Source: Azolla caroliniana
Taxonomy: Eukaryota > Plantae > Polypodiophyta
DNA: 64,000 nucleotides
Direction: 5' to 3'
NCBI GenBank assembly: GCA_043228905.1
Contig: JBHGNT010000005.1
Span: forward strand, 10,726,001 to 10,790,000
Part shown: piece after piece, positions 1,022 to 30,340 of the stretch
Numbering within the stretch: the stretch's first letter is position 1
Layout of the letters: every line of letters begins with the position of its first letter
Position numbers and translations under genes: made by a program
Notes under the pieces: generated by a model
Database searches by the model: none
Seen by the model: only the letters and a program-made list of their open reading frames with translations
What the model was told of the DNA's origin: nothing

Positions 1022-2660
1022 CTATCTTCCATCGTCATGTTGATCTATTGGAGGAGGTTCTAGCTCAAACCTTTTCTTAAATACTTTTATCCTCTTTCCA
1101 GCTACCACATTTAGGATTAGTGTCCCATCCAATTCACTAAGTTTATAAGTAAAGTTATCATATACTTTTCTTAGTATGTAAGGCCCAAACCATCTTTCAA
1201 CGAACTTGCGGACAGTGCTATGTTCATTATCTAAATTGCTATCATACACAAGCAGCCAATCCCCTTCTTCTATCTTCTTATGTCGAATTCTGTGAGTTTT
1301 ATCAAAACAAATTTTATTCTTTAGTCGAGCCTCCTTCAATCATTGTGCTGCTAATTCTACATCTTCAGGCTGACGTTGTAATTGTTGAATTCTCAAAGCA
1401 AGCAATTCTTCTCTGCTTAGCTCTTCTCTCCATGGAATAGATGTCCATGACATAATTGATTCTTCTATTGGCATGATGGGCTTTTGGCCAAGTATTAGTT
1501 CAACTGGCATATATCCTCTTACCGAACTATCTGTTGTCCGATCTACCCATATTGCATAAGGTAGCATGCGTGGCCAATCTCTTAATCTACCTTTAAAACT
1601 TTTCATGATCGCCTTAACTATTGGGCTATGTCCTCTTTCCATCTTTCCATTGCCTTTTGGATTATAAGCAATTGTAAGTGATAACTTGACCCCTATCCGA
1701 CTGAAGAATTGTCTAGCTTCATCAAAATCAAGCTCTCCTTTATCTGCAATTACTTTACCAACACACCCATAACGACATATTACATCTTCTAACAAAAATT
1801 TACATACAACTTTATTTGTTTTTGTCGTAGTGGTCTTCCTTCTACTTGGTTTGTAAGGTCTTCTCTTGCTAGTACTAAATATCGCATTTGACCTTCCCCA
1901 AGTGGCATTGTCACTAGGTCGACCATCCATTTATAATGCATTAATGATGAATATGTTGGGTTTAGCTCATCTCGATACCGAATAGTCGAGTACCTCTAGC
2001 AAACCTCACAGGTTTCCACAAATTTCATTACATCTTTATACATATGTGGCCACCAATACTTTTCTTTCAACTTCATAAATGTCTCCCATATGCCTCTATG
2101 TCCTGCCCACAAACTATCATGGAATTCACTAATTAATTTTCTCTTAATTTCATCCTTACAAATGACTCCAAGAGGATTTTCGGTTGGCCTTTTTGGACGC
2201 CTCCATAAATGTCCTTCATGTAGGAAAAACTTGAATGCTCGTCTTCGAAATTCATTTAATTGTTTCTTGGACCATGATGGGTTGCTTCTTGAGTCTTTAG
2301 AAAATTTCCTATTTCTAACCACTGACCTTCATACTCTGTGTCTTTGAACATAATTCTTACATTAAACTCATCATGAGGCTTAATAGATACTTGATGAGCA
2401 ACTTGATGGCTTGTAGTTGCCCAATTTTTATCTTCAGCTTGCATCACCCTTTCATTTATGAACCTTGCTCTTGACAGCATATCTGCGACTGGGTTCTCTT
2501 TGCCCTTTATATGCCGTAATTCTAGGTTCATGGATTTGATGTATGCAATCCACCGAAGCATTGCAATATCTAGTGCCGTGCAACTTGCTATCATTCCGAT
2601 GAGTGGCAGACAATCTATTTCAACCACTACATCTGCTTGAATCAGTAAGCAAACCCCACA
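1022..2660 (-). pseudogene. G1 RNase H C-terminus and integrase, fragmented
   Basis: ORF pieces HIKGKENPVADMLSR, FHDSLWAGHRG...KYWWPHM...CEVC (zinc finger), AYNPKGNGKMERGH, RWFGPY (GPY/F). Confidence 0.9.
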
Positions 2661-2894
2661 ATTCTCGTTTAACTTGTGTATAATTTCTTTGTCTTTCATT
2701 TAATATCTTTGCTCCAAATCTTCTTTGTCTTTCATTTAATTTCTTTGTCTTTCAAGCTCCTCTTGCATTCATACATCCTAGTCACACACATAGCTCCACT
2801 TTCAGAAACATGAAATGACTTATTCATATGTTGTAATGCCCTAGGTGAGGGCCTTTTAATAATGGGACTATTGCAACCCTCATTTGCAGCAGTC

Positions 2895-3677
2895 CTAGTC
2901 AAAAACTTGATTATCAAAATCATCAGATTCTTTTGGTATCGAATGATCATGAAGCTCTTGCTTGTTCCTCTCATGATTTGGGCGAACTGTAATAAACTGT
3001 ACAGTTCTTCGTCCATCTTGGCTTCGAATCTTCGCATAGGCAGAACCATTGTCAAGGACTTTGGTCTCCATCTGTACCGCTATGATGTATGGTTGCCCCA
3101 AGATTATCGGATAGGTAGATCCTTCCTGCACAAAGAAATGTTGATCTACCTCTATATCACCAATAGTAACCTTTACATTTGGGCATGCACCAAATAAATG
3201 TTTGGTGACTGATGTGGTTGCTTTTACATGCCAACCATGTTGAGTATCAATTGGCCATCTACCTTTCCTGTAAAAATCAGCACTCATTATATTTATTTCA
3301 AAACCATGGTCAATAAGTGCCATCATTGGGTCTGGAACATTTCCAATCTTCACATGATGCTCAATAGTGGCTCTTGCCCAACATTTGTGAGAGTAGTGGC
3401 TTCTTCTCTCTGTTGAACTTATCATTGAGGTTGATGCATGTTGAGAGTCAACAATGATATTGTTCGACTCGTTGCTTACCACTTCATATGCCACCTTCCG
3501 ATTTGGCTCTTTAACATGCTCATTTACTTGCTTCTTTCTTCGCACAATATCCATTATTTCATCATGAAATTCCTTTTTTGCAATACCTAACACTTCTAGT
3601 GTAAATTCTACTCGACTATCTAGTATTCTTGTTTCTAAAATTTTCTTTAAATCTGTATCCTTTTCAATATCAGACAT
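2895..3677 (-). pseudogene. G1 aspartic protease region
   Basis: ALIDHGFEINIM ... PIILGQPY; homologous to G2 7958-9030; interrupted at 3678 by copia A. Confidence 0.85.
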
Positions 3678-3937
3678 TGTTGAGGATCAAGCGCATTGGG
3701 ATTTGAACCTTGTACCTTTACTTTATATATTATAGAACTTATAATAATGATATGTATCATTTATTATTATACGATAAACATACTAGCATGTAATGCATAG
3801 AATGTCATGCATACATGAAGCCATGTGGCGAGCATGAGGCGAACATGCTCGCATGCTTCATCTTATATAAAGGGGGCTTACCCCCACCATTCAATAAGAC
3901 TTATTATTTGAAGATATCTCATATCTAGATCTTAACA
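3678..3937 (+). repeat. Copia A 5' LTR (260 bp)
   Basis: TG...CA termini, TATATAAA at ~3864, followed directly by a tRNA-iMet PBS (3938-3950). Confidence 0.85.
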
Positions 3938-4247: not shown

Positions 4248-5841
4248 ATGTCTGTTCAAGTAACGAAACTTGAAAATTTGACTAAAGATAATTATGCATC
4301 ATGGAAGTATAAAGTCATGTTGTTTTTAAAAGGAGAAGAATTGTGGCATATAGTTGTTAATGATAAACCTAGTCCTACAATAAAAGAAGAAGATAGAAAG
4401 GGAAAGGAAAAAGAATCTGGTGTTATTGAGTATGCAAAGGATTGGAATAAAAAGGATGCACAAGCCATGTAATACTTTCAAACACTCTTTCATCATCTTT
4501 GATTCCACATATAAAGCATTGTAATACTACTAAGGAAATGTGGAATACATTAGAAAATATTTTTTCGAATATATCTTCGACTAGAAAAATGCAACTAAAA
4601 GAGCAATTACAAAATGTTAAAATGGATAGAAACATGACAATCATGGATTATGTTGGAAAAATTAGGAAAATTGTGGATGATTTGGCATTGATAGATTGTA
4701 TTGTGGATGATGATGATATTGTGCGTGTATGTTTGAAACGATTGCCATCAAACTTTAATATATTTAAAACATCCATTTATGTTGCTGGAATACCATCATT
4801 TGATGAGTTGATTCCTAAGCTGCGACAAGAAGAACAAATTACAAGTTCATCAAAGAGTGGTAAGGATTGGAGTGAAGAACCATCTTTCTATGCTAATAGA
4901 GGAAAATCTCTAAGAGGAAAAGGAGGAAGGTGGCAACAACGAGGAAGAAATCCAGCTCGTGGAAGATGGCAAAATGAACAAATTTACAATGAAAATAAAC
5001 AAGAAGGTGAGAACTACAATAACAATAATAGTAGAGGGAGAGGGAGAATGCAAAGAGGATGAAAATTTCAGAATAATCAAGGTAATTTTCATGGTTATTC
5101 AGCCTCAACTATTAAGTGTTTTTATTGTAATAAGATTGGGCATCATGTGCAAGACTGTTGGATTCGACAAAGTGACATAAAGAATGGAAAATATAGTGAA
5201 AGTAATTATGCATGCAGTAGTATTACTCAAGTAGATGAAAATAATGAGAATACATGTGATAAAAATGCACTTGCAATTACAATTGGTAAGAATGCAAATA
5301 ATGCTTGGTATCTTGATTCTGGTTGTTCAAATCACATGACTAGAGATTGTGGTTTGTTTGACGCAACAAAGGGTTTGTCCACTCCAATTGAAATTTGTAT
5401 GGGTGATGATACATGTTATGATGTAAAAAGTTGTGGAGATGTTCAATTGTCGAATGACATGTCCAAAAAGCTAAAAGATATGTGGTACGTACCTGGTGTT
5501 AAAAATAATTTAATTTCTATTGGTCGACTAGTTGAGAAAGATATGGTTGTATTGTTTAATAAGTATGGATGTACAGTAACAAGTTCAAACATGGGAGAAG
5601 TGCTTGTAACCGGAAGAAAAGTAGGACGAATGTTCATATTGAATGATACAAAAAAGAAATGCATGATTGCAAATGAAAAAAATGAGTTTGAGTTGTGGCA
5701 TAAAAGATTGGGACATGTGAGTGCAAAAAGATTGCTAAATATGAGTAATAATGATTTGGTTCATGGATTGCCAAAGTTTAATAGAGATTGTGTTCTACCT
5801 TTTTTGTGAGCCGTGTTGTAAAGCAAAGTTCACAAGGACGG
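4248..5841 (+). pseudogene. Copia A gag, protease and GAG-pre-integrase
   Basis: LTKDNYASWK, CFYCNKIGHHVQDC zinc knuckle, WYLDSGCSNHMT, LWHKRLGH; contains stops and frameshifts. Confidence 0.9.
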
Positions 5842-6567
5842 TGTCATAGTGTGAATCACACACTACGTGAAATATGTAAAATACTATATCCAAAGTACGT
5901 ATAATAAATAAAATAAAATATTAAAAACATTTATTACATGCATAGGGTAAGATTCAAAACCTACACCTCCACGTAGACAAACCCCAACCTTACCATTGTA
6001 CTAACTTATCCTAAGTGTTTTAAATATAGATTGAATACATATAAGAACTTTATTTACGCCTACCTTTATTAAAAGGAAAGTCATGCATTTTTTAGAATAC
6101 GTGAATACTTTATTTATAAGAAAAATGTACACCAATAAAAAATGACTCGTGCACATCTAGCGAGCATGAGCACTATATTTAGGAAATAAAAGCATAGTGT
6201 AAAAAGGCAACTCATGCACATTTAGTGTGCATGAACACTTTAGAAAAATAAAGCATGAAGTTATGCTTAGCCTCTTCCATCCTTATATAAGGAGGAGAGA
6301 ATGATGTAAGGGGGTTGTTGCTTATTTTACAAGGGTGGATTAATATAATATAATCGTGGGATTCACGAATTTGCTAACTATTTTTCTCTCTTAATCTAAG
6401 TACTCACTAATACACTATACTCGTGGGATTCACGAGTTTTTCATATTTTTCTTTCTTACAACATATTTCATATTCTTCATTGCCTTAGAATCTTCTTTTC
6501 TCCTAGTCCAAAACCTCAGTGGTTCCCACCCGACTCACGGAACGATCCGGAGCCGAAAGGCACGACA
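5842..6567 (+). repeat. G2 5' LTR
   Basis: Direct repeat of 17646-18376; TATATAAGG at ~6283. Confidence 0.92.
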
Positions 6568-6571
6568 CAAG

Positions 6572-6589
6572 TGGTGAACCCGACGTGAA
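6572..6589 (+). promoter_or_regulatory. Primer-binding site complementary to the tRNA-Trp 3' end
   Basis: TGGTGAACCCGACGTGAA is the reverse complement of the plant tRNA-Trp(CCA) end ...TTCACGTCGGGTTCACCA (recalled, not searched). It lies 4 nt after the LTR. Confidence 0.8.
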
Positions 6590-6605
6590 CACGAGTGGCA
6601 AGGAG

Positions 6606-9030
6606 ATGGAAAATCAACCGGAGGCTAACAACATGATGATGATATTCGAGCGAATGCTTCAAGAACAATGTGCGATGTTAGAGATAGCGGCAGCAGTAGA
6701 GTGGCTCGTGCAACGGATCCGGCAATTCAACAGGAAGGACGTATCACGCTATCTTCGGTACTAGAAGGCGGAAATGATACAATGCGGGATTTCGAAAGGA
6801 TTGCAAGTGACATCCTTCAACCGGGTAGCTACCGACGTGCTTCAAGCAAGTATCCACGGGCTATGACAAATAAATCCAATGTGGGAAGCATTTGAAGAGG
6901 TGCTAAAGACCGCGTTCGCTATCGAGGACTCCTCCAAGGCAACGCGGAGAGGATTCGAGGATTGGGTAGAAACGTCGGACAAGGGGATGAAGGTCCTCGA
7001 TGTGTTTTCGGCATTCGAAAGTCGATTCGGGAGGTTGTCTGCGAGAGATCAAGCTATCCGCGCACCGGACAAAGTTATCATGTTCTTACGAGTCGTAGAT
7101 GTCCGGGACCGGAAGGATCTTGGAGTACTTCTAGAGGACACGACTACCGAGAGTGACCTCACCGAAACATGGGAAAGCGTGCAGGATATAGTCGCGCGAT
7201 ACACAAAGAGGGGGCAATGGCTTGCCAACGAAGAAAAGAGGGTTTCGGAACCGATTCCGAAACCGAGATCCAGATCGGAAGACCATCAACCGCAGGCTCG
7301 GGAAGCTACGACCGAGAAGGGAATCGACGCAACTATGGTGGAGCAGTTGCTGAAGGAGATGGAGAATCTAAAAATCGCGATGGTGAAGAAGTCGGATGAC
7401 CGTTCCACAAGTTCCAAGTATATGAACCGTCGGTGCATATGGTGCGATAGCACCGAACATGATCGAGATTGCGATGAGCACAAGCGCTACGACATGATCT
7501 TATCTACTACAAGGGAAATCGGATTCCTTCGAAGGACTCTCAGAAGCCGCTCCAACCGAACTTCCGAAAAGGCGGCATGAAGAAAGTCCTAGAGGAGGAA
7601 ATAGCGGCGAAGAGCAATTATGCGACAACCGCGGGAATACGTGTCAGGGAGTCATTGGGAGCAAAGGTGTCTTTTTGGCCGGAAGTGCTAGAAAACACCG
7701 AGAAAACCGAATCTAACGAGATCCGAATCACCGCGGAAGGCATCCGGGAAGGTACGGGATGGGAGTGCCCCGTCGATAACAATAGCGTATACGCCCTATG
7801 TCAATTACATGAGGTGTATGTGGACGAGAAGCAGCAACGCACGTAGGATGCGGCTGGACCATCGAAGACACCGGAGAGCTGCAACTTTGACGGAAGAGGG
7901 AAAGGAAAAACGATTCCGGCATTCAAGCTCGCCTAGGACATCGAACAACAAACGGACTTGAAAAATGTGTTCGAGGAGAGAATTCTTGACATCCGGGTAG
8001 TTTTTTCGCCTCAAGTACTACTCGGAATAGCAAAAAAAGAGTTCCATGATCTTCTTGTGGATCTCGTAAAAAGAAAAAGGCAAACTATGGAGGAAAATGC
8101 ACCGATGGTGAATGCAAATAGCATTCTAATGAACAACACTGAAGTGGAGGACGAGATTCCGAATTCCCACTATACAAAGCCACATTGGGCGCGTGCAACT
8201 ACGGAGACTCCAATCCGAGTCAGCAACATCAAAGAGCTCGTGCTAGCATTGATTGATCACAGATCGGAGATCAATTTGATGTCCAAAGAGTTCTACCGGA
8301 AGGGGAAATGGCCTATTAACACCAATCATGGATTGAAAATCCGGGCGGCCACTAAAGCAATGGAAGATCTATTTGCGGCTTGTCCGGATGTGACGGTGAA
8401 GATCAGGGATGTCGAGATCGACCAAAATTTCTTCGTACAAGACGAGGTCTCACACTCTGTGATCCTCGGGCAACCCTTTTGTTGAGAGACAAGCTCAACA
8501 TCGGCCGGATCGGCTGAAGAAGCCGAGGACCGGATCGGTTGGGACCAATCGGTTAGGCTGAGTGCGTAAACCGGGAGGCCGTTAGGGAAGATATTCCGTG
8601 AGGAATATATTTGGGAGTTAGTGTAGGAGCTCTTGATGAGCATTGAAGTACTGTCAGTACTTCGGTCAGTCCTTCTAAGACTTGTATAAAAGTGTTCACT
8701 GAGCACGTCTTATGTACAGACTGAGTATTATTGTTGAATAGAGTTTTCTGTTTCTCTCTCTGTCTCTCCTGCGTATACTGTGTAAGCCCAAGCTCTCCAT
8801 TGAACCTAAGTTTCCTTCCTTCTGTTCTGTCTTCATACTTGCTTCCACACGCTACTTTTTACACCTTTATCATAGCATCACGGATGGAGATGAAGGTGCT
8901 CAATAGCGGTGCGGCTTTTGCACAAATTCGGAGCCAAAACGGAGGGAAAGCCGTCCAATTCCTAACGGTGTTAGCAAATCATGAAAGGAACAAGAGAGAG
9001 CTCTTGTCCCAAACAAGGATGGACTTTTAG
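6606..9030 (+). pseudogene. G2 gag-protease ORF (stops, frameshifts, solo-LTR insertion)
   Basis: CIWCDSTEH knuckle, ALIDHRSEINLM, VILGQPF|IIASRME; ends ...RMDF-TAG at 9030. Confidence 0.85.
8480..8863 (+). mobile_element. Solo LTR of a copia-C-related family inside the G2 protease
   Basis: TGTTGAGAGACAAGCTCAACA...TTTTTACA; 5-bp TSD CCTTT on both sides; similar to 19832-20272. Confidence 0.9.
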
Positions 9031-9418
9031 AGCGGATTGTTGCGGAGTGGGGAAGTGATAGTCCGAGAAACCCTGATACCCCACACAGGAAGAAAATTCT
9101 CGGAGCAAAACAAGTACGAATCAGTCCGGATGGGGCATCTACGTACACGGTCGTAACCGGAGGAATGAAGAAAGAATACCGAAAGGTGGAGGATAAGTTA
9201 CGGTCGGCATCAATAATAAAAGAAGATGAAGAAATCGTGGGAATAGTTGAAGAAATGTTCTAAGGGAGCACACTACAACAGCTTGAAGAGCTCGCGAAAG
9301 ATACAAGCTAGGGAGACCGGGTAGTTCCTGTTGAGAAGCAAGCTCAACATGGTATGCGATGCTTATTGGGAAATAAGCTATAGTAGTTATTTAGCTACTT
9401 GTGAACATAAAGGAGAAA

Positions 9419-9560
9419 CAGCTAATTAGCTACTGACAGCTATTTAGCGACTGACAGCTATTTAGCTATTGACAGCTATTTAGCGATTGACAGCTAATTA
9501 GCTACTGACAGCTATTTAGCGACTGACAGCTAATTAGCTACAGGCAGCTAATTAGCTGCA
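9419..9560 (+). repeat. 18-bp tandem array (CAGCTA[A/T]TTAGC[T/G]ACTGA) in copia B U3; about 8 units here and 9 in the 3' LTR (14472-14631)
   Basis: Read directly; accounts for the 546 vs 564 bp LTR lengths. Confidence 0.9.
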
Positions 9561-10013
9561 TACGTAAGTAACTTATTACTTAGGTAGAAAGTAAGAGAGT
9601 AAAGAAAATAAGAAGAAGGAATATAGGAAGTAGAACTCTGAGAGAGAGATAGTGAGCATAGAGAGAAAGAACTCAGAGAGTGAGAGCAAAAGAGAGAAGC
9701 AAACGAGAGCAAGTAGAGCTCTGCGCATAATGAAATAGAAGAAGTTTTTGGCTGCTACAGAGGTAAGTCTCCTTCCCCCTTCCCTTCTGTGTTTGAGCAC
9801 TAAACGATCTAGCACACCACGATCCGCCGCGCACATAAGAAGAGCTCGAGTGCCTTCTTCACGTTTTCTTAACATGGTATCAGAGCAGAGTTGCTCATAA
9901 AGAAGAGTACAAAAGTGCATAGATCTGAGAAAGGTATTTCTCTGTTTGCTGATCTGAATCAGAAAGTTATTTGTTGAAGTAATCGTAGCAAAAACCCTTG
10001 TTTGGAAGAGATA

Positions 10014-13000
10014 ATGGCTGCAGAGAATGCGGGCCAAATAGTTACAGAGAAACTAGATAAAAACAATTTCCTGGCGTGGAAATTTAGAATGACAAATTTC
10101 CTAATGGGGAAAGGATATTGGGATTACATTGAAGGAGACCTAGAAGAGGCTCCGGAGATCCCAGAAGAAAATGTCACAGCAGCACAGATTAAAGCATTCA
10201 AAGATTGGAATCAAGGGGCAAGGAAGGTAATGCATTGGCTCTCACTTAGCATCTCAGATTCGATGCTTGGGCACATACAAGATGTTATGCTCCCAAAAGA
10301 AGCTTGGGACAGTTTGGTAAAACTGTTTGCAGTAAACACAAAAGCTAGAAAGCTACAGTTGAAGACTGAGCTAAATACCTTAGAAAAAGGTAAGATGTCA
10401 ATAAATGAGTATGCCTTGAAAATAAAGAGCATATGTGAATCACTTGCTTCTATCAATGTAAAGATAGAAGATGATGATAAGGTAGAAATATGCTTGAGAG
10501 GCTTGGGACCTCAATACAAAAGCTTTAAAACCTCTATGCTTACAAGGGATAGTATCCCAAGTTTTCCAGATTTGGTTTCAATGCTTGTAGTAGAAGAAAG
10601 GAATCAGATGGATGATGTAAATAAAGGAAATCTTGAGAATGAGGGGCAAGCCCTATATAATAGTGCCGGAAGAGGCCGAGGAAGAGGCCATGGAAGATTT
10701 GGCTCAGCAAGAACCCACAATAATGGTTATCAAGGAAGAGGACAACAAACCATTAGAGGAAGAAACAACAACAGAGGCAGGGGGAGCAACCAAGGTAGAG
10801 GTAAGCAAACATATGTAAATGATGATGGCTGTTGGTATTGTGGAAAACCAGGCCACACACAAGCTGAATGTTACAAGAAGCAAAATGATGAGAAAAGAGG
10901 AAAGAGTCAGCAGAATAACTATGCCCAAACTAGTGAAGATTGTGAAAAAGATGGTGCATTTGTGGTACAACATGAGATAGCAGCAGTGGCTGAAAGCTCA
11001 CAGAAATGTAATGAAGAGTTTACATGGTATGTAGACTCGGGGGCATCTAACCATATGACTGGACATGCAAACTGGTTTGAAAGGTTGAGAGAACCAGAGA
11101 TTCCTGGCTATGTACGGACGGGTGATAATAGTACTCACCAAATAGAACATGTTGGAGATATCCCATTGTGGGAGGAAAAAGGAAAGACTAAGTATATGTT
11201 GAATGTAATGCATGTTCCAAATCTTGCTAAGAATCTGATTTCTGTTGGACAGATAGTAGAGCAAGGTATGCAAGTAAAGTTTAAGCAAAGTGGATGCTAT
11301 ATAGAAAAGAATGGGAAGCTCATTGCAAAAGGAAAACGACAAGGAAGAATGTTTATTTTGGATGTTGACATGCCTAGACAGATTTCAGCTATGTTTGCAA
11401 ATGGAATGAGTGTAGTCTCAGATGTGGAAATGTGGCATAAAAGGATTGGCCACATAAGTATGCAAACCCTAAAGAATATGTTGAGAAAAGATGCAGTGGC
11501 TGGACTGCCAAAACTGAAAAATTGTGAAATGGGAAAGATATGTGAAGCATGTCAATATGGAAAGCAAAATAGGTTGCCATTCCCTCATGAAAGACATGTA
11601 AGTAAAAATTTGTTGGATTTGGTACGTACGGATGTATGGGGACCAACTAAGAATGCATCTATCGGTGGCTGCAGATTTTATGTAACTTTTATTGATGATT
11701 GCTCAAGGAAAACATGGGTGTACTTCATGAAAGAGAAAAGTGAAGTGTTTGAATGTTTTCGTAAGTTTAAATGCATGGTAGAAAAGCAGGTAGGTACAAG
11801 AATAAAATGTTTAAGATCTGATGGAGGAGGAGAGTATTTCTCCAATGAATTTTCTGATTTTCTAAGCAATCAGGGAATAAGAAGACAGTTCACATGTAGA
11901 TATACTCCACAGCAAAATGGAGTTGCTGAGAGGAAAAATAGAACATTGGTGAACATTGCAAGGGCTTTGATGACAGAGAAGAATATGCCATTGTACTATT
12001 GGGCAGAAGCTGTAAATACAACAAATTATATTCTAAATAGATGTATAACATCGGGAGTACATGAAGCAACTCCTGAAGAGTGTTTCTATGGAAGGAAACC
12101 TAGTATAGAACACTTAAAAGTGTTTGGATGCCTTGCATATGTACATGTGCCTGCAGAAGTAAGAAGTAAGCTGGATCCAAAGGCAGAAAAATGTATTTTT
12201 GTTGGCTATTCAGAAGAACAAAAAGGGTATAGATGCTATAACCCTGTAACAAAGAATACTGTGACAAGTAGGGATGTAATCTTTGATGAGTTAGCCAGCT
12301 GGTATAGTCCAAAACAGAATCCAGAGACTGATGAAGACAATGAGATTGAAGACAGAGACAAATCTGAAAATGTAGAAGACTGCCACAGAGATGGAAGCAA
12401 GGTTGGACAGCAAAGTCCAACATCAACAGAATGTTCTGGACCATCAAAAAGCTCAGATGGTAAATTTGATTCGAATTCTTGGAGTGGAAAAAGTGGAGGA
12501 CACAAAAAATGTGATGATAAAAAAGGAAAACAGAAAATGCCAGAGTATGAAATGTTGGATGACTTGTCTAAAAACATGGAAGATGAGGATTCAGATGTGT
12601 CATTGGATGATCTTCTTGGTATAAGAGGATTGAAAATCCCTGGTATGGAAAAAGCATTGAAGGATGCAAATCAGAAATTGAGAAGATCAGATAGAGAGAA
12701 AAAAATTGTTGAAAGATTTGGTTATGATACATACATGGCTATGCATTATGCATACATGTCTAAGGTGGTACTGATCCCTGATCCAAGTAGTTTTGATGAG
12801 GCTAAAACTGAGAAGAAATGGGTGGATGCAATGCAAGAAGAGATTGATGCATTGGCTGAAAACAGAACATGGGATTTGGTGAAGTTACCAAAAGGAAAAA
12901 ATGTGGTAGGTTGCAAATGGGTCTACAAGACAAAGCATGATTCCAGTGGGAATGTAAGTAGACATAAAGCAAGATTGGTTGCAAAGGGATATGCCCAAAT

Positions 13001-14363
13001 GCAAGGAATTGATTATGATGAGACATTTGCACCGGTTGCAAAGATGGCAACATTGAGGACATTACTGGTTGTAGGTGCAGCTAGAAGATGGTTTCTTCAT
13101 CATATGGATGTAAAAAATGCCTTTTTACATGGTAACTTGGAAGAAGAAGTGTATATGTGTCAACCACCAGGTTTTGAAGATAGGAAGCATCCAGATTATG
13201 TATGTAAGCTGAAAAAGGTTCTCTATGGACTGAAACAGGCACCAAGAACATGGCACAGGGAACTTTCAGATTATCTGAAAAAACTTGACTTCAAAATGTC
13301 AAAGGCTGATTCATCATTGTATGTTAAAAGGAAAGATGATTGTATGGTTGTGATTCTGATTTATGTTGATGATCTCATCATTGGAGGTGATTTCATGGAT
13401 GAGATAAGTAAGCTGAAAAGAAATTTGGAAATGAAATTTCATATGAAAGATTTGGGAGATCTGAGATATTTTTTGGGTATTGAAATCATCAGATCTGAAA
13501 GTGGTATATGTGTGTTGCAAAGACAATATGCAACAACTATGTTGAAAAAGTATGGTATGCTTGGATGCAAACCTATTGGAGTACCACTAGATAAAAACAG
13601 CAAATTGAGGGCTGATTTGGGAGCCAAAATAGAAGATGTAAACATGTACAGGTCTATGGTGGGCAGCCTTATTTATTTGACCATAACAAGACCTGATTTG
13701 AGTTATGCAGTTGGATTAGTCAGCCAATTTATGCAACAGCCAACAAAGCCGCATTTGGACTGCATTAGAAGAATTCTGAGGTATGTAAAAGCTACTCAGA
13801 ACTATGGATTGTTTTACAGGGCTGATTTGGACATAAATCTGGAAGGATATACAGATGCTGATTGGGCTGGAAGCCAAACAGATAGAAGATCCACAAGTGG
13901 ATATATCTTTACATTGGGAAGTGCAGGTATTTCATGGAGTAGCAAGAAACAGGCTACTGTTGCATTGTCTAGTACTGAAGCTGAGTACAGAGGAGCTGCC
14001 ATAGCCACTTCTGAAGAGGTATGGATCAGAAGATTGCTTGCTGATTTGGGAGAGTATATAGATGGTACTGTCACAATCTGGTGTGACAACATGAGCAGCA
14101 TTCAACTTGCAAAGAACCCAGTGTTCCATGCAAGAACAAAGCACATTGAAGTGCATTATCACTTTGTTAGAGAAAAAGTGATTGAAGGAGAAGTTGATCT
14201 GGTGTATGTGAATACAAATCAGCAGGTTGCTGATATTCTCACAAAGGGATTGAGTGTGGAAAAGCATACACAGTTTCGGAACATGATGGGAGTTGTAGAC
14301 ATTGATATGATGGCTGAAAAGCATCATGAAAAAGGAGTTGTAGATAACCCCAAGAAAGGATAA
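10014..14363 (+). CDS. Copia gag-pol polyprotein (gag, CCHC, protease, integrase, RT, RNase H)
   Basis: Uninterrupted ORF with first ATG at 10014: CWYCGKPGHTQAEC, WYVDSGASNHM, DVWGP...SDGGGEY...[30 protein letters not shown]. Confidence 0.95.
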   Translation: MAAENAGQIVTEKLDKNNFLAWKFRMTNFLMGKGYWDYIEGDLEEAPEIPEENVTAAQIKAFKDWNQGARKVMHWLSLSISDSMLGHIQDVMLPKEAWDSLVKLFAVNTKARKLQLKTELNTLEKGKMSINEYALKIKSICESLASINVKIEDDDKVEICLRGLGPQYKSFKTSMLTRDSIPSFPDLVSMLVVEERNQMDDVNKGNLENEGQALYNSAGRGRGRGHGRFGSARTHNNGYQGRGQQTIRGRNNNRGRGSNQGRGKQTYVNDDGCWYCGKPGHTQAECYKKQNDEKRGKSQQNNYAQTSEDCEKDGAFVVQHEIAAVAESSQKCNEEFTWYVDSGASNHMTGHANWFERLREPEIPGYVRTGDNSTHQIEHVGDIPLWEEKGKTKYMLNVMHVPNLAKNLISVGQIVEQGMQVKFKQSGCYIEKNGKLIAKGKRQGRMFILDVDMPRQISAMFANGMSVVSDVEMWHKRIGHISMQTLKNMLRKDAVAGLPKLKNCEMGKICEACQYGKQNRLPFPHERHVSKNLLDLVRTDVWGPTKNASIGGCRFYVTFIDDCSRKTWVYFMKEKSEVFECFRKFKCMVEKQVGTRIKCLRSDGGGEYFSNEFSDFLSNQGIRRQFTCRYTPQQNGVAERKNRTLVNIARALMTEKNMPLYYWAEAVNTTNYILNRCITSGVHEATPEECFYGRKPSIEHLKVFGCLAYVHVPAEVRSKLDPKAEKCIFVGYSEEQKGYRCYNPVTKNTVTSRDVIFDELASWYSPKQNPETDEDNEIEDRDKSENVEDCHRDGSKVGQQSPTSTECSGPSKSSDGKFDSNSWSGKSGGHKKCDDKKGKQKMPEYEMLDDLSKNMEDEDSDVSLDDLLGIRGLKIPGMEKALKDANQKLRRSDREKKIVERFGYDTYMAMHYAYMSKVVLIPDPSSFDEAKTEKKWVDAMQEEIDALAENRTWDLVKLPKGKNVVGCKWVYKTKHDSSGNVSRHKARLVAKGYAQMQGIDYDETFAPVAKMATLRTLLVVGAARRWFLHHMDVKNAFLHGNLEEEVYMCQPPGFEDRKHPDYVCKLKKVLYGLKQAPRTWHRELSDYLKKLDFKMSKADSSLYVKRKDDCMVVILIYVDDLIIGGDFMDEISKLKRNLEMKFHMKDLGDLRYFLGIEIIRSESGICVLQRQYATTMLKKYGMLGCKPIGVPLDKNSKLRADLGAKIEDVNMYRSMVGSLIYLTITRPDLSYAVGLVSQFMQQPTKPHLDCIRRILRYVKATQNYGLFYRADLDINLEGYTDADWAGSQTDRRSTSGYIFTLGSAGISWSSKKQATVALSSTEAEYRGAAIATSEEVWIRRLLADLGEYIDGTVTIWCDNMSSIQLAKNPVFHARTKHIEVHYHFVREKVIEGEVDLVYVNTNQQVADILTKGLSVEKHTQFRNMMGVVDIDMMAEKHHEKGVVDNPKKG

Positions 14364-14951
14364 GTTGAGCTTGAGGGGGAGTGTTGAGAAGCAAGCTCAA
14401 CATGGTATGCGATGCTTATTGGGAAATAAGCTATAGTAGTTATTTAGCTACTTGTGAACATAAAGGAGAAACAGCTAATTAGCTACTGACAGCTAATTAG
14501 CTACTGACAGCTATTTAGCGACTGACAGCTATTTAGCTATTGACAGCTATTTAGCGACTGACAGCTAATTAGCTACTGACAGTTATTTAGCGACTGACAG
14601 CTAATTAGCTACAGGCAGCTAATTAGCTGCATACGTAAGTAACTTATTACTTAGGTAGAAAGTAAGAGAGTAAAGAAAATAAGAAGAAGGAATACAGGAA
14701 GTAGAACTCTGAGAGAGAGATAGTGAGCATAGAGAGAAAGAACTTAGAGAGTGAGCGCAAGAGAGAGAAGCAAACGAGAGCAAGTAGAGCTCTGCGCATA
14801 ATGAAATAGAAGAAGTTTTTGGCTGCTAGAGAGGTAAGTCTCCTTCCCCCTTCCCTTCTGTGTTTGAGCACTAAACGATCTAGCACACCACGATCCGTCG
14901 CGCACATAAGAAGAGCTCGAATGCCTTCTTCACGTTTTCTTAACAGTTCCG

Positions 14952-17589
14952 ATGGAATCGGTCGAGATGTACGAGATCATTGTGAAGATGGGTCTAGATG
15001 CGCTCCGCAAAGAAGAAGCAATGGTAAGTATGAAATACAAGACCGTGGAGACGAAGGTGAAACCGGCCGCGGGACCACTACCCGCCGATAGCAAACAAAA
15101 AAGGAAAGAAGTCTCGGGAGATCCGACACTTCGGAAGTCCATGGATATCGGACATGCCTTCACAGATGAGACCCGGAAGAAACTTCGAATCGGTGGAGGT
15201 GGTTTCCTTTTACAAAATGAAGAAGAACGATTCCGAGGGATGTTGGAACAACATGGGGAAGCATTTGCATTCACATCGAAGGAGATTGGGTGCGTTGATC
15301 CGAAGATAGTGGAGCCAATGGTGATCTTCACGATTGACCATGTGTCGTGGAACCTGAAGCCGGTTCCGGTGCCATGGGCGCATATTCTGAAAGTCATCGA
15401 CTTGCTCAAGGAGAAGGTGGCGATGGGGATTCTAGAGCCATCAAATGCTCCGTACTCAAATCTATGGTTTATGGTTCCGAAGAAGAATGGGTCACTCCAA
15501 TTTATTCAAGATTTGCAACTGGTGAACAAGGTCACGATCCGGAACTCCAGAGTCGATCCGATAGTGGACGAATTTGCGGAAGGGTAAGAAGTTCAAATGG
15601 AAACCGGAGCATACCAAAGCCGTGAAGAAGCTCAAGAAATCACTACGGAGGGCAAAAGCACTAAAGAAGCTGAACTATGACCGTCCGATCATAGTAACGG
15701 TTGACACAAGTTCAGCCGGAATCGAATGGGTCATCAATCAAGCCGATCCAGATAGTTTGCGATATCTGATCCGATTCGGAGTAAAGGTTCTCAACGAAAG
15801 GCAACGCGGATATGCACAAGTCAAAAGAGAATTATTGGGAGTCGTGTCGGCAATCAAATCGGATCGAGATTATTTGATCGGAGCCGAAGTAGTGATCGAA
15901 ACGGATTGTCTTCCGATACTCGGGATGATGCGGTGTTGCACGATACCGGATGTGGCTATGCTAAGATGGATTGCATATGTTAAGTCGTTTAATCCGGAGG
16001 TAAGACACATCTTCGGAAAAGACAACGCGGTAGCGGATATGCTATCGAGGGCGCGGTTCGGAGATGACATAACCGAATCCGATAATGAAGAAGTTTCCGA
16101 AGACTACTTTGCTTCGGAGCACATATGCCGGGTGAACATAATCCGAGAATTCCGGGAAGAAGAATACGAGGGAGAAAGCTTGTTGATCGGGAAAGTGCTA
16201 CAAGAAATTGAGGAATCATCGGACAATAAAGAGAAGAGAGCCGAGATCTGAAGTAAGAAACGGCAAGTCTGAAAGTTCTTCTTGAGAAATGGATTAATAT
16301 GGAGGGAGCCGAAAAGACCGGATGGCATACCACTTCGGGTAATCGGGACGAAAGAGCAACGAAACCGGATAATTTCCGAATTTCACGAATCCGATTGGGC
16401 TGGACATCGAGGAACGTGGGCAACTTTTGTGAAAATCAAACAAAAATATTGGTGGAAGAACATGTACAAAGATATAGCGGAGTTCACGAAAAGCTGCGAG
16501 AAGTGTCAAATCTACTCCGGAGTTCGACACCGAGATGAGTTACATCCGACATTCTCACCGACAATCAGCTTCAAATGGATGGTCGATATTGTAGCCATGC
16601 CAACCGGAATCAGACAAAAGAAGTACTTGGTGTTAGCTTGGGAAGATCTCACAAACCAAGTAAATGGTCGGGCGTTACGAAGGAAAACGTGTTCTGCAGT
16701 ATGCCAATTTCTTTTGGAGGACGTGTTTTGTAGGTACGAGTGCGTAGGACAAGTGATTGCGGATCGACGAGAACTCAACTCTGATAAATCTAAGGAATTC
16801 TTCACCAAACATGGAGTTCGGTTAACACTGACAACGGCATACAATCCCGAAGCCAACGGGAAGATTGAACGATGACATAGTCCGATCGTCAAAGCACTTG
16901 CGAAGGCATGCGATGGAAGGGTGAAGGATTGGCCGCAGATGCTTTCGTATGCACTATGGGCGGATCGAACGACGCATAGCTCCGTAACCGGTTACATGCC
17001 GGCAGAACTCATGACCGGACAAGCACCGGTGATGCCAACGGAAACCGCGATCGCGACATGGACAGTGCTACCGTGGAAGGAAGAGATGAGCCGGGAAGAA
17101 CTACTAGCGGTCCGGATACGACAACTAGAGGGAAGACCGGAAGACATAGCGGAAGCAATACGCCGACAACAAGAAGCGTGATTCCAGAATAAAAGCCGGT
17201 TTGACACAAAGCACCGACTACGACCGCGGAAGATTGAAGAAGGATATTGGGTGATTATCTACGACAGTAGTTTGGATCATCAACATACAACGATGCGGAA
17301 GTTCACGAAAAGGTGGTTCGGGCCATACGAGGTTCAGAAAGTTTTCGACAACGGAACTTACCGACTATGCAAGTTGGATGGAACGATGCTACGAGTGCCT
17401 ATAGCCGGGAAACGGGTGAAGATTTTCAAGAAGCGGGCTGATGAAGAACCCTATGTGATCCTAGACAAGACCGACAAGAAGGAGCAATCGGACGAAGATC
17501 GCGGTGATGCAGGAAGCGAAGAAAGTGGATTACAACTCACAGTCGACTTAAGGGGAGAATCGGAGGAAGCTTCGGATGAAGGTGAATAG
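14952..17589 (+). pseudogene. G2 pol: RT N-terminus, RT core deleted, RNase H, integrase
   Basis: WFMVPKKNGSLQFIQDL...VDEFAE joins directly to RKGKKFKW; TVDTS, GKDNAVADMLSR, HESDWAGHRG, AYNPEANGKIER, WFGPY. Confidence 0.9.
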
Positions 17590-17645
17590 CAAGCATCGGG
17601 GACTTCGGCACATACCGGAGGATGTGCAGGTTCGGAGGGGGCAAG

Positions 17646-18376
17646 TGTCGTAGTGTGAATCACACACTACGTGAAATATGTAAAATACTATATCCGATTT
17701 AAAGTACGTATAATAAATAAAATAAAATATTAAAAATATTTATTATGTGCATAAGGTAGGATTTAAACCCTATACCTCCACATAGACAAACCCCAAACTT
17801 ACCATTGTACTAACTTATCCTAAGTGTTCTAAATATAGATTTAATACATATAAGACCTTTATTTATGCCTACCTTTATTAAAAGGACAGTCATGCATTTT
17901 TTAGAATACGTGAATACTTTATTTATAAGAAAAATTTACACCAATAAAAAATGACTCGTGCACATCTAGCGAGCATGAGCACTATATTTAGGAAATAAAA
18001 GCATAGTGTAAAAAGGCAACTCATGCACATTTAGTGTGCATGAACACTTTAGAAAAATAAAGCATGAAGTTATGCTTAGCCTCTTCCATCCTTATATAAG
18101 GAGGAGAGAATGATGTATGGAGGTTGTTGCTTATTTTACAAGGGTGGATTAATATAATATAATCGTGGGATTCACGAATTTGCTAACTATTTTTCTCTCT
18201 TAATCTGAGTACTCACTAATACACTATACTCGTGGGATTCATGAGTTTTTCATATCTTTCTTTCTTACAACATATTTCATATTCTTCATTGCCTTAGAAT
18301 CTTCTTTTCTCCTATTCCAAAACCTCAGTGGTTCCCACCCGACTCACGCAACGATCCGGAGCCAAAAGGCACGACA
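17646..18376 (+). repeat. G2 3' LTR
   Basis: Direct repeat of 5842-6567. Confidence 0.92.
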
Positions 18377-19831
18377 ATCGTAATGCCGATGAGGAATCCA
18401 ACTTTCAGGCACCCATTGGAGTTGGTTCATATGGATGTTTGGGGTCCTTTACAAGTAGCAAGCATTGGAGGATCAAGGTATTTTGTAACATTCATATGAT
18501 TATTCTAGAATGGTGTGGATATACTTTGTAAAAAAGAAAAGTGACATTTTTACAAAGTTCATTGAATTCAAGCAAATGGTTGAAAATCAATGTAATAGAA
18601 AAATAAAAATGCTTCGAAGTGATGGAGGAACCGAGTATATGTCAAATGAATTTGATAAGTTCTTAATAGAAAATGGTATTAAAGGCAAGTCACACCTAGA
18701 TACACTCCTCAAATGAATGGAGTTGCAGAAAGGAAAAATAGACATATACTAGAGATAGCTAGAGCTATGCTATTTGAAGTAAATTTGTGAAAAAGGTTTT
18801 GGGTTGATGCTTGTCATTATGCAGTGACTTTGAAAAATAGAATGCCAACAGCCATAATTGGTAACAATACTCCTTATGAATTGTTTTATAATAAAAAGCC
18901 TCAAGTTGATATATTAAAAGTTTTTGGATGTATTTGCTATGTATATGTTCCTAGTCAAGTAAGGAAGAAGCTTGATGAAGAGGCTATAAAGTGTATTTTC
19001 CTAGGTATTGATGTCATAAAAAATGGATATAGATGTTTTGATATAGATGATGAGAAGTTTCACATCTCAAAGAGTGTCAAATTTGATGAAATGCAAAATA
19101 GGAAAACATTAGAATGTGATGTGCAAATGCCTTTGTCAAGTAAGCTAAGTAGTGTGGATCACGAAAATGATGTTGATACCGAGAATGAGAAAATAGATGA
19201 TTACGTTGAAGAAGCTGACATAAATTGTGGGACAACTTCATAATTAAGAAGATCTAGTAGAATAAGAAAACATGTTCAGAGGTTAATATATGATAGTTGC
19301 ATTGCACAACATTATCTGTTTATGGCAAAAGTTAATGATTTTATTGAGCCTAATTGTTTTGAAGATGCATATAAGAATAGAGAATGGAAGTGTGTTATGC
19401 AGGAAGAAATTGATGCATTATACAAGAATGATACATGGGAGCTAGTGCCTAGACCGAATGATAAAAAGGTAATTGGTTGTAAGTGGGTATATAAGTCTAA
19501 GTTCAATTCGATGGTACTTTGAATAGATGTAAAGCAAGATTAGTGGCTAAAGGTTATTCTCAAACATATGGTCTAGATTATGAGGAAACATTTTCACCAG
19601 TAGCTAAAATGGCCTCTATTAGGGTTGTTATCTCTTTAGCAGCATCTCTAAAATGGAATTTATATCAAATGGATATAAAAAATGCTTGTTTGAATGGTAT
19701 TTTGAAGGAAGAAGTGTTCATGGAACAACCACATGGTTTTAAGGATAATGTTAACCCTGATTATGTGTGCAAATTGAAGAGGGGCTTATACGGACTAAAA
19801 CAATCACCAAGAATATGGTTTGAAAGGTTAG
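18377..19831 (+). pseudogene. Copia A integrase and RT (continuation)
   Basis: [41 protein letters not shown]. Confidence 0.9.
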
Positions 19832-25705: not shown

Positions 25706-26978
25706 TCTCTTGTTTCATGCTTTTTGGTTGAGCCAATCTCATCATCCGACCTTTTCCTTTTTTCTTCCACTATCACCTCATGCTCTTGGTGTTCTGCCAT
25801 CTGAGCATAGAATGTCATAACATCTACTGGAACATCCCATCCAATGTTTTTCCTTATAGAATCTCCGGCAACACGAAGGTCTTCCATCTTCAGCTTTTGC
25901 TTTTGTGCCGAACCAACCTTCAAGACGCATTCCTGTCGTTGCCAAGTAGTACATTGCAGAAGCCTTCTTTGCTTCAGCTTCTTCAAACTTAACCTTAACA
26001 CCACCATCACCAAAGTTCTTTGTAAGTGGACTTCTAGTTTTAGTTAAGTAAATGTTACCATTTTTCCAATAGACCAAGTCTCGATTTTCCATGTCTTTAT
26101 ATTCCGCACAATCACGTAATCGATGTTCGAGACTATCACACCACATGCATCGAGGTCGAAATGGTTCCCTTGACCTCGAAGTCTGACCATTCTCAAGCTT
26201 TGCCACTTTAATTGTTAGATATTTCATACTTTGAACTAAATCATCAAGCAAAGACTCACTCTTAGTTTCGATCATTTCTCGTGGTTGATGGACCATTTCG
26301 TGTGTGATGGTTCTCGACCAAGTCTTTGAACCGATTTGTGATTCCCACATGTGGTATTTGTAGCATTGCACCATTCCTTTGTATTCTTTTCATAAATTTA
26401 TTACAAGCATTTGTTACCTCATTCCAATCTGCAGTTATACCATCTTCGATATTTGGTATTTCAAGCATAAATTCCAATTCTTTTCTATATCTCTTGTCAA
26501 CTGCCTGCAAAAATAAAGCAACCTTTTGCCAAGACAAAGAATTTCTTTCTTCTGGCTTTAAGTGTCCATACAATCTATCAAACTCTTTTTTTGTGTCAGC
26601 CACAGATAATCCTTTATTTTCTTTTAGGACCCATTCATGGAATGAACGCATAGTAACGCGAGAGAAATCCTCACAAGCATATTCAGACACAAGTGCTTCT
26701 TTGAATGCATTCCAATCCAAACTATGCAATGTTTGTATTTCAAGAATTCTATCTCTTAATTCCATGTCCACTAATTTATAAAAGTTTGCTATTATATTGA
26801 CATCATTCATACCAGACATTTCCATTTCATCATAATATATATTCACATACTTCGAAATATTTGTGCCATCAAACATACCAATCTTCTCTCAGACTTCTCG
26901 TAAGGCATGAAATAATCGATCTTGATTCAACTTTTCAATAAACAACATTACCGGATCCATTGTACTCGTACTTGCCAT
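25706..26978 (-). pseudogene. G1 gag
   Basis: Homologous to G2 gag (VALFLQAVD, CMWCDSLEH); ATG near 26978 just downstream of the PBS. Confidence 0.85.
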
Positions 26979-27040: not shown

Positions 27041-29685
27041 AATTGTGTCGTGGCGTCGTTCGCCTAGAAGCGTTGCGTAGACAGAAGACAACGTGAAAGT
27101 GAGGAAGGAATCGTTGGGATTTTGGACGAAAGAGACGAAAGAGTGGAAATAGATAAATAGAGATATGACAAGATAGGATGTAAAATGATAATTGAGGGAA
27201 TGTAAGAAATTTATAATTATTTCATGAAAGAGTTACAAAATGGTTGCGAGCGTCGTTGAACCGTCGAACTTTGTCTCACAAGCAAGGTTGTTAGGTACAT
27301 TAGATACGGTACGGATACCATACGTATTTAACGTATTAATACGCATATAGTACCTCCCAATTTAAAAATACGTTAAATACGTTTTTTAATATGTTAAATA
27401 CTTATCAAATACGTAAAATACGTATTTGACGTATTTTACGTATAATACGTTAAATACTTCTAGAATTTGAAAATTACTTATCTTTCAAAAAAATATTTGT
27501 AATATTGTAAAAAACATCTATGTTTACACAATGTACATTATAGTTCTACATCCTAAAATGCATATCAAACATTTGAACATTTCACATCCTAAAATACGTA
27601 TTAATATGAATGTCGACATTCACTTGTTCTATAAATTAGTGTGTATCACGATGTTCTACTTCAAATTGCAATTATTTACAATTATGCCCTTATAGATTGA
27701 GGAATCGTCTACGATTATCACACTCACTTTACATTTCTCTCTTCTTTTCTCTCTTCTTCATTATCTTCTTCATCATCCTTCTTCTTCTATCTTCTGTGAT
27801 TATCACACTTAGAGCCAGGACAGGTTTCAGTCTTCTTTTCTCTCTTTTTCTTCTTCTTCTTCGTCAACATCTCTTCTGTTCTTCTTTCTCTCCTTCTTTT
27901 TGCTTCTTTTTCACTCTTTTTTTTTTCTTTGGCTTTTTGTTGGGGTTTGGCTTACATTTTTTTATAAATACATATTATACCTGTTTTTCAAATGTATGTT
28001 AAACACCGTATTGGACAAATGTACATGATATTTGACTGAACAACATTGAGGTATAATACGTGTCACGAACACACCAAGCGTGGACTAAGACGGAGCACGG
28101 ATGATGAGACTACGACGGAGCAATGACGGAATGACACAAGAGCATAAAGATAGAGATGAAGATCAAGGAGAGAGGATGGGCGAAACGAGAATACTAGATT
28201 GATATGTCCATGACTAGCGTTGTTCACCTTGAATTCCTTCAAGGTGAACTCAACTATTTATACTAAGTGGCATGCATACCTGTTGCATGCATGTGATACA
28301 ATAGAGCATGTAGGCAGTAGGTACGCATGCATGTGCCAAGTGTTAATAATACAAGGGAGAAATTATGCACATAATGCTAGCTAAAACCTACAATGAGGAA
28401 GTATATACATGATTATATACTAGATGTGTGGTTAACACATAACACTCGATTATAACATGGTCATGTCAAGAGTTCGATTCTTGACATTATCCCCCCTCCA
28501 ACGATGCCTTCCCAAATTGTTTGTCGGCTTAAGGGGATATTGTTGATGAAAATCTTAGATCACCCCCAAAGTATTCTGTAAATCCTAGACAAGGAGTAAC
28601 CCTTCCACAAGACAGGGTATTTAACACCAACGGGCATGAGCGACCATGTGTGGTCCTCGCTAGCAATGGGCACAGTTTCGGCTCAAACCGAACCGAACCG
28701 TTAAACCGTGGCTTAACGGTTTATCGGTTCAAAATTAAATAATGAGTTTGGTTTGGTTTAAAGAATGGAAGTTCGGTTTGGTTTCGGTTCGGTTCGGTTT
28801 AACATTTATCGGTTTATCGGTTTATCGGTTTTATCGGTTTCTATTAATTTGGTTCGGTTTATAGGTTTATAGGTTCTTACCCTAGCCCTAAATTTTCAAT
28901 TTTATAAATTATACCCTTCCTAAATTTTCTATTTTATAAATTATACCCTTCTTATTTTTACTATGGACCTAATACTAGTTAGTAGTAGTAAGTACATACT
29001 ACAAACTACAGTGTATCTACAGACAGACAGACACAACTATCGAACAGAAAGGATTTAGGAGGCGCACTACACAGGCGGCATTGTGCAGGTTGAGGCGGCA
29101 ACCACCAATCACCACTTCCAATCACCACTTCATTGCTCTTCAGACTCCAGACTCTCCATAACACAGGTATGATCCATAACACAGGCTAAGTTTTTCCTTT
29201 TAGTTAACATGAAAAAATTGCAGTCTTCTCTTTGACTGATGAGTTGAAGATCATTTTAGACATGTATGAGAAGTAAATCATGCTCTTGATGGTGGAATTT
29301 ATTATCACATCGTTTTTAATAAATTGGATTGAAACCTTATCATTTCCGGGTTTCCTCTGCATTACATTTGTATAGTGCACCATAACATATAGTTCCATTG
29401 CATTTAATCGGTTTCTCACAAATTGGGCCGAACCCTTATCATTGTTCCCAGTACTTTACTTTATATTTGTATTGTATTGTGCAGCCAGAACTTCAGTGCA
29501 TGGGATGTTAGTTTCATTGCGATTTACTGCTCTATGGAATTATTTATATATACAAGATTCCTCTTGACATTATCTTTATGCTTATTAGACTCGGGATTTG
29601 GCTTATGGTGCTTCATAAAATAGGTCCAAAATTCTCTCTCAGATTTAATTATAACTAAATTTGATTAAATCACATAACTTAACAT

Positions 29686-30149
29686 CTTCCCTCACCTGCT
29701 TTTGAAAGGCCATTGGCAAGGAAATTATAAGTGTTTATGTTGGGCACTTCTCCCTTTTCTTTCATCATCTTAAATAATGCAACATCTCCTGGTTTCTCTT
29801 CTTGCTAGAAGGAATAAACAAGAAGGTTACATATATACAAGTTTGTTAACAAAACATGCTGAAGCATCTTATCATACATCCCATAAGCTTGCTTTGGAAA
29901 CCCTGCTTTCACCAATGCATCAATCATTATGTTAAATGTATGGGAATTGGGAATGCAGTCATATTTCTCCATCCTTTCAAAGGCTGTGACAGAAGCTTCA
30001 AGCATTCCAACATAAGCATAGACCCTGGCAATAGCTGTGAAAGCATTCGGTATCAAACTAACTTGATCCTTAACTATGTCTTCCATGAGAAATTCTATGG
30101 TCTTGAAATCCTTTGCCTCCCCAAGAATCTCAAAAAGCCACCAAGTTGA
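29686..30149 (-). pseudogene. Captured pentatricopeptide-repeat (PPR) gene fragment
   Basis: PNAFTAIARVYAYVG...AFERMEKYDCIPNSHTFNIMIDALVKAGFPKQAYGMYDKM...LFKMMKEKGEVPNINTYNFLANGLSKAG are P-class PPR motifs. Confidence 0.8.
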
Positions 30150-30340
30150 GCTAACTTAGCAATGTAACAATGTATCTTTCTATGTTAACATGTCTATCTT
30201 TCTATGTTTGCCATTAGACATAATGGTTGTTTTACTGTTCTTAGCTAACTTAGCAAACTTTCTACTTCATTTATTTTTCTCATTATAATGTATTTGAAAT
30301 GTGCTAATTGAGTTAATTGAATTTTATAGGACACCATAAA

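Follow-up and report, generated by a model that had tools for sequence, protein, structure and literature searches.

A candidate -1 ribosomal frameshift signal downstream of the protease in Phygy-like Ty3/gypsy retrotransposons, examined from a decayed copy in Azolla caroliniana

The G2 element and its surroundings

The window analysed here is a stretch of 64,000 nucleotides of the Azolla caroliniana genome (contig JBHGNT010000005.1, positions 10,726,001 to 10,790,000, forward strand), in which a Ty3/gypsy element, referred to as G2, extends from position 5842 to 18376, inside the integrase region of a copia element (Table 1). This copy is dead and decayed, and its ORF2 has been damaged by stops, by a copia insertion and by a deletion in the reverse transcriptase (RT) near position 15580. 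The LTR of the inserted copia element contains a short tandem repeat of CAGCTA-type units. G2 is flanked by ACGG on the left (5838-5841) and ATCG on the right (18377-18380), an imperfect 4-bp duplication, whereas among 20 young sister copies from the same genome, two of them unscorable, the duplication is perfect in 16 of 18, and NCGN is found at the right end in all 18.

Table 1. Coordinates of the features of G2 and of a related decayed element in the window
Feature	Position	Strand	Remark
Junction of decayed +1/-2-clade element	2846..2908	-	AA_GUU_UUU_GAC_UAG; AG_GUU_UUU in sister copies
Predicted pseudoknot of the decayed +1/-2 copy	stem 1 2895-2886 with 2874-2865; stem 2 2882-2877 with 2851-2846	-	
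5' LTR of G2 (TGTCATAG...GCACGACA)	5842..6567	+	95.9% identity with 3' LTR
Primer binding site, complementary to tRNA-Trp	6572..6589	+	pattern match
ORF1, gag-protease	6606..9030	+	interrupted by stop codons, by a break in the frame near 7481-7499 and by a solo LTR
Predicted retropepsin-fold protease domain, end of ORF1	8200..8970, approximate	+	model of a sister copy mapped to the window; split by the solo LTR
Copia-family solo LTR inside the protease gene	8480..8863	+	CCTTT on both flanks; resembles LTRs at 19830 and 25087
ORF2 (linker-RT-RH-INT, without chromodomain)	8985..17589	+	-1 frame; 14-codon overlap with ORF1
Candidate shift-site heptamer G_GAC_UUU	9021..9027	+	G_GAU_UUU in most relatives
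ORF1 stop, directly 3' of the heptamer	9028..9030	+	TAG in 30/30 nearest copies
Predicted pseudoknot stem 1	9033-9043 with 9055-9065	+	9034-9041 with 9057-9064 form the conserved core
Predicted pseudoknot stem 2	9047-9052 with 9079-9084	+	its loops are 3, 2 and 13 nt long
Nested copia element	9329..14945	+	1461-codon open frame; perfect GTTCC target duplication
3' LTR of G2	17646..18376	+	purine tract just upstream

Several traits bear on the identity of G2. The pattern matching its primer site falls in a tRNA-Trp(CCA) gene of the same genome, and in an unbroken sister ORF2 the Pfam domains RVT_1, RT_RNaseH, Integrase_H2C2, rve and SH3 were found, with zero matches to Chromo or to RNase_H (aRH). 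The body of the young sister copies is filled by two frames and contains no extra ORFs. The named relatives come from Physcomitrium patens, Riccia and Adiantum, which would fit a seed-free land plant as host. In the sections cited of a survey of plant LTR retrotransposons, the Phygy lineage is described by a tRNA-Trp primer site, a 4-bp NCGN duplication and a compact body with no extra domain (PMC6317226). The family studied here shares with Phygy the tRNA-Trp site, the NCGN duplication, the lack of an extra domain and the Physcomitrium relatives, and differs in length (7.2-7.5 kb versus 7.7-10.0 kb in those sections of the survey; PMC6317226). On these traits G2 appears to be a Ty3/gypsy element with features of the Phygy lineage, the similarity to Physcomitrium proteins being a proxy for placement only.

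The window holds further mobile elements. A chromodomain Ty3/gypsy element at 56028-63146 has a single 1479-codon frame and 474-bp LTRs that are 100% identical; it is very young and has no frameshift. At 28061-34607 a remnant of a hAT transposase lies between direct repeats of 426 bp that are 98.6% alike, together with an array of repeats of about 53 bp at 33332-34008. Remnants of a decayed Phygy-type element of the +1/-2 clade described below occupy about 1055-3686 on the minus strand, and a third remnant of Phygy-like gag, more divergent at about 34-36% identity, is located at 25711-26879, also on the minus strand.

Frame layout at the protease-RT junction

In the initial annotation the gag-pro frame of G2 was read as ending in ATG GAC TTT TAG, and these codons do lie at 9019-9021, 9022-9024, 9025-9027 and 9028-9030, respectively. 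It was also proposed that, once the copia insertion is removed, the RT-RH-INT frame is the -1 frame and runs from this point into RT with only two in-frame stops; the -1 frame and the two stops before copia were recovered, while RT itself is not traversed, about 196 codons being absent, which correspond to residues 352-548 in the ORF2 of a sister copy.

The position of the junction relative to the protease was addressed with an AlphaFold2 model of the unbroken ORF1 of a sister copy (60-row alignment, mean pLDDT 72.6). This model contains a strand-rich domain at residues 566-693, for which Foldseek returned the RVP domain of Ddi1 and the proteases of XMRV, EIAV and HIV (66 at E<=0.001, the lowest value being 3.4e-6); the Pfam protease call on ORF1 is weak (E 0.004), and an ORF1-profile sequence search of solved structures gave no meaningful match. 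Since the domain preceding the site is predicted to adopt a retropepsin fold, the site lies after the protease. Of the 120 relatives among the matches listed (P0121-P0240), 111 have D-H-G as their active-site motif, where retroviral proteases carry DTG or DSG (PMC12789967, sections cited). In the decayed copy in the window the motif reads D-H-R, at about 8255-8263, and DTG occurs in some Riccia models.

Comparison with other copies in the same genome clarifies the state of the heptamer. From 1500 candidates, 40 loci were scored, and the 30 closest to the window were taken as the nearest-copy set; GGATTTT is found in 23 of them, GGACTTT in two (one being the window itself), GGAGTTT in two, GAATTTT in two and GGAATTT in one, and TAG always comes next. 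The same position of the heptamer is altered, from T to C, G or A, in five of these 30 older copies (L001-L030). A younger subfamily has GGATTTT in all 49 further loci, with TAA in frame in 48 and a single-base deletion in the remaining one. Twenty young copies, picked from the hit list mostly by a long open ORF1, were taken whole: they measure 7.2-7.5 kb, have LTR identities of 99.1-100% (18 scorable) and carry pol in the -1 frame in 20 of 20, and in ten of them both frames are unbroken over the site (712 and 1232-1241 codons). Young copies that encode protease and RT in the same frame, which would have spoken against the initial proposal, are thus absent from this set. GGACUUU had been regarded as either a variant or a mutated form of GGAUUUU, and it stands as a private change of the window copy, a site that has decayed along with its dead element, and not as a family variant. 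Because the young copies read GGATTTT and keep both frames open, GGACUUU is attributed to decay and the split frames to the working state of the element.

The same layout extends to distant relatives. A metagenome scan gave 176 loci, of which the best 80 (37-99% identity in the best segment) were retained, most of them from assemblies with neighbouring accession numbers, so that they may be collapsed repeats from few host species. The protease end is present in 72 of these 80, and RT as well in 61 of the 72; among these 61 scorable loci RT lies in the -1 frame in 58, in the +1 frame in three and in frame 0 in none, and a single ORF across the junction was found in 0 of 72 relatives. One locus with RT in the +1 frame, L122, was treated as decay, its ORF2 closing before it reaches the junction. 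No relative was found in IMG/VR.

ORF1 ends in D-F-stop in 61 of 73 loci (L061 included), and a G precedes GAT in 61 of 61. Among 29 distinct D-F-stop junctions the preceding codon occurs in 13 forms, every one of them ending in G, against a background of 131 out of 464 Asp codons that follow a G; Asp is encoded by GAT in 29/29, compared with 281/465 in the background, and the stop is TAG in 13, TAA in 11 and TGA in five. DNA-level variants of the site comprise G_GAU_UUC, G_GGU_UUU and G_GUU_UUY, and in some of these the stop is displaced downstream by 1 or 5 codons. At the protein level, the 120 ORF1 relatives listed end in DF (65), GF (3), NF (2), DF or GF plus five residues (25), VFx (2) or otherwise (23), so that 97 of the 120 matches listed end in a site pattern, proteins from Physcomitrium, Riccia and Adiantum included. 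In 32 families ORF1 and ORF2 overlap by 10-121 nt, in place of a non-coding spacer of the Ogre type; in four families the overlap is only 10-13 nt, so that a shift would have no other site available. The first AUG of ORF2 lies 0-109 codons past the stop in the 32 families, and no start codon is conserved.

These observations bear on other ways in which Pol could be made. It is extremely unlikely that Pol arises through reinitiation or internal initiation past the ORF1 stop, or through stop-codon readthrough. Readthrough has a precedent in Retand, where GAG-PROT:stop:RT is found in 49% of intact elements, and a pseudoknot 3' of the stop can drive it; it would keep the frame, yet RT is in frame 0 in 0/61 loci and frame 0 shuts within 41 codons of the ORF1 stop in 29 of the 30 nearest copies. 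TAG, TAA and TGA are freely used, which counts against this reading, and the variable position of the first AUG, none being conserved, speaks against reinitiation.

Fusion of protease and RT was observed in 27 of the best 102 ORF2 relatives, namely 26 gene models of Riccia sorocarpa and one unannotated protein, P0090, all compared as proteins only. P0090, a distant relative in which protease and RT share a frame, retains an A-D-F remnant at the junction; it may be a copy altered by mutation or represent a genuine single-ORF branch. On the one hand, the 26 Riccia models, by joining protease to RT, would fit an Ogre-like splicing event that removes the ORF1 stop, or a separate pol mRNA, the hairpin then being a splicing or packaging signal. 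On the other hand, the Ogre spacer measures about 274 bp, whereas the frames overlap by 10-121 nt here; the joints differ from one Riccia model to the next, and the Riccia proteins P0157 and P0240 end in DF-stop. Splicing would also leave unexplained why G_GAU_UUU is kept at synonymous positions and at a fixed distance of 5-7 nt from the stem, and it is considered highly unlikely. In each of three poly(A) RNA runs under the same species label, 78-150 reads aligned, most of them 90-95% alike and located over gag, with the junction covered less than once. At L061:1910-3119 the sparse stranded reads of runs X6-X8, which derive from a diverged copy, fall on gag and scarcely on pol.

It could also be supposed that an accidental frame break became fixed in non-autonomous elements which use the Pol of a single-ORF helper, the stems being a by-product of conserved residues in the linker or a packaging signal. 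P0090 and the dead state of the window copy are compatible with such a scenario, which nevertheless appears most improbable, given that frames of 712 and 1241 codons are open in copies with identical LTRs, and that the break occupies the same position in relatives with as little as about 37% identity while the linker residues vary freely.

Predicted pseudoknot and proposed -1 frameshifting

Downstream of the heptamer, an 11-bp stem with its loop paired to a distal segment had been proposed. The 11 bp do fold as claimed, with four G-U pairs, and GTGGGG at 9047-9052 is indeed complementary to CCCCAC at 9079-9084; the outer C-G pair of stem 1, by contrast, is formed in only 13 of 38 aligned rows, and the conserved core amounts to 8 bp starting 6 nt 3' of the heptamer. 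Taken as a single copy, the fold in the window is unremarkable: its hairpin has a z-score of -3.8 over a trimmed 33-nt segment, which is a biased window, -1.1 at 63 nt and +0.25 at 112 nt, all for nested folds only. Rfam gave zero matches at E<=5 over 8900-9250.

It is conservation and covariation that lift the pseudoknot above chance. An alignment-free finder requiring the heptamer, a spacer of 4-8 nt and minimum lengths of 6 bp for stem 1 and 4 bp for stem 2 was applied, with a score cut-off of 28, to a non-redundant set of junctions that omits L143, L144, L148 and L149 (frame breaks near the junction) as well as L100 and L150 (too short). A score of at least 28 was reached by 32 of 37 junctions, whereas within these loci only 8 of 436 control positions reached it. 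The window itself scores 39; the five junctions missed by this strict finder have a mismatch within stem 1. The spacer measures 4-7 nt in the 32 junctions found, and 5-6 nt in 29 of them. In a 38-row alignment 14 of 17 pairs have changed on both sides, kinship being ignored in this count, and 81% of paired cells can pair, versus 39-43% with slid partners. All five covariation measures were reached by at most 1 of 500 shuffles, a control that ignores relatedness; on a protease tree (36 of 37 rows, L157 being left out for an upstream indel) there are only 1-2 independent contrasts per pair, which is below the reach of significance. Stem 2 has no fixed-column alignment and is 78% paired. The residues encoded by the stems vary while pairing persists, indicating that the stems are not due to protein constraint.

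The family thus has overlapping frames, a heptamer of the X_XXY_YYZ type in the zero frame and a predicted 3' structure, as in -1 programmed frameshifting, while the window's own G_GAC_UUU departs from the family G_GAU_UUU. In these computational tests, the layout, GGAUUUU and the conserved, covarying stems support the gag-pro/pol frameshift advanced in the initial annotation, and the signal appears broader than claimed there, being lineage-wide with one sister clade apparently switched to the +1/-2 frame. On this comparative sequence evidence, it is highly probable that the family uses programmed -1 ribosomal frameshifting after the protease, at G_GAU_UUU, with a predicted H-type pseudoknot 5-6 nt downstream.

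Under this mechanism, most ribosomes would stop after the protease and release Gag-Pro as the main product, while a minority, halted by the pseudoknot when tRNA-Asp and tRNA-Phe occupy GAU UUU, would slip to GGA UUU and continue translating, yielding a minor Gag-Pro-Pol. The protease would then be made one-to-one with Gag, and only RT/RH/IN would be rationed, as in alpharetroviruses. The G_GAC_UUU of the window would allow poorer re-pairing, and this copy would be unable to make Pol regardless. In the sections cited of PMC5009743, insect flaviviruses, umbraviruses and dianthoviruses are documented as using G_GA for X_XX, and pea enation mosaic virus needs a nearby stop, of any identity, after G_GAU_UUU.

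A nested clade whose pol lies in the +1/-2 frame, and comparison with known systems

In two families, L128 and L135 (about 70% alike in DNA), pol is open in the +1/-2 frame past the ORF1 stop, and the protease tree (36 of 37 rows) places both in one clade nested within the -1 elements. Their site, AG_GUU_UUU, is the homologue of G_GAU_UUU, and the spacer between it and the shared pseudoknot core measures 5 nt in place of 6. Among copies of this clade in the Azolla genome (G000; L161-L217, 40 loci with six duplicates dropped), the +1/-2 relation holds in 34/34 and AG_GUU_UUU in 33/34. Sixteen of these copies were taken whole, and five have both frames (739 and 1164-1181 codons) open over the site and LTR identities of 99.8-100%, suggesting recent mobility in the +1/-2 state.

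On sequence grounds, it is somewhat more probable than its alternatives that Pol of this clade is made by a -2 frameshift. A +1 shift in its place is possible and less likely, because UUU_G in the G000 family would defeat re-pairing of tRNA-Phe in +1, whereas a -2 shift gives UUU in both families. With comparable, moderate confidence, a switch of direction may be proposed, in which the ancestral G_GAU_UUU with a 6-nt spacer directs a -1 shift, and in the nested clade AG_GUU_UUU with the pseudoknot one base closer directs a -2 shift by RNA only. L141, a locus of low coverage, has G_GUU_UUC, a 6-nt spacer and pol in the -1 frame, which fits this reading. The proposed -2 shift resembles that of arterivirus nsp2TF, which also involves G_GUU_UUU and re-pairing in which AGG_UUU takes the place of GUU_UUU, and the G000 family shares with it the same following _ga and an immediate stop in the -1 frame (PMC7618843, sections cited). 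Arteriviruses differ, in the same sections, by a protein-bound C-rich motif 11-14 nt downstream, whereas the sister clade has a predicted pseudoknot 5 nt downstream (PMC7618843); this C-rich motif is absent from the sister-clade sequences, the pseudoknot standing in its place, and in the sister clade the shift would be required for Pol.

The -1 signal of the wider family has parallels in several known systems, here drawn from the sections cited of each source. Like the alpharetroviruses RSV/ASLV, the family has its protease within the Gag frame (PMC12789967) and a -1 shift with a 3' pseudoknot that would open pol (PMC5009743); it differs in being a plant LTR retrotransposon with another heptamer and without an env frame. 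Since no sequence relation with alpharetroviruses is expected, we infer that the alpharetrovirus-like layout is convergent. Umbraviruses, dianthoviruses and insect-specific flaviviruses share the same G_GAU_UUU, with a close stop as in pea enation mosaic virus, but in umbra- and dianthoviruses stimulation relies on long-distance pairing, as opposed to the compact local H-type pseudoknot predicted here (PMC5009743). Ogre and Retand, of the Tat group, likewise have the polyprotein break after the protease; Ogre has a spacer or intron and Retand an in-frame stop, both with aRH, whereas the frames overlap here (PMC6317226).

The position of the break after the protease is therefore already known from Ogre and Retand, as recorded in those sections (PMC6317226); it is the signal that appears new, though the survey's supplements may list the overlap for individual Phygy elements. 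In the same sections of the survey, Phygy is given as Physcomitrella-specific with its ORF organisation listed as not determined, and GAG-PROT overlapping RT-RH-INT is not the prevailing form for any tabulated lineage (PMC6317226). The words 'frameshift', 'ORF' and 'Phygy' do not occur in the cited text of PMC7466625. In the literature covered, with subscription papers and repeat-database entries outside its scope, no frameshift signal has been described for Phygy or after a plant Ty3/gypsy protease, and no -2 shifting in a retrotransposon.

A lineage-wide -1 signal would fill the 'not determined' ORF entry of Phygy, and would mean that the alpharetrovirus layout also arose in a plant retrotransposon; it would moreover account for gene finders splitting or mis-splicing these elements. 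The family offers dozens of natural covarying pseudoknots that are testable in moss and liverwort systems, and the question of -1 versus -2 shifting is directly testable with two natural cassettes that have one pseudoknot in common. If true, the shift proposed for the sister clade would be the first -2 frameshift known for a retroelement Pol, and would put to the test, in a living system, the proposed rule linking spacer length to the direction of the shift.
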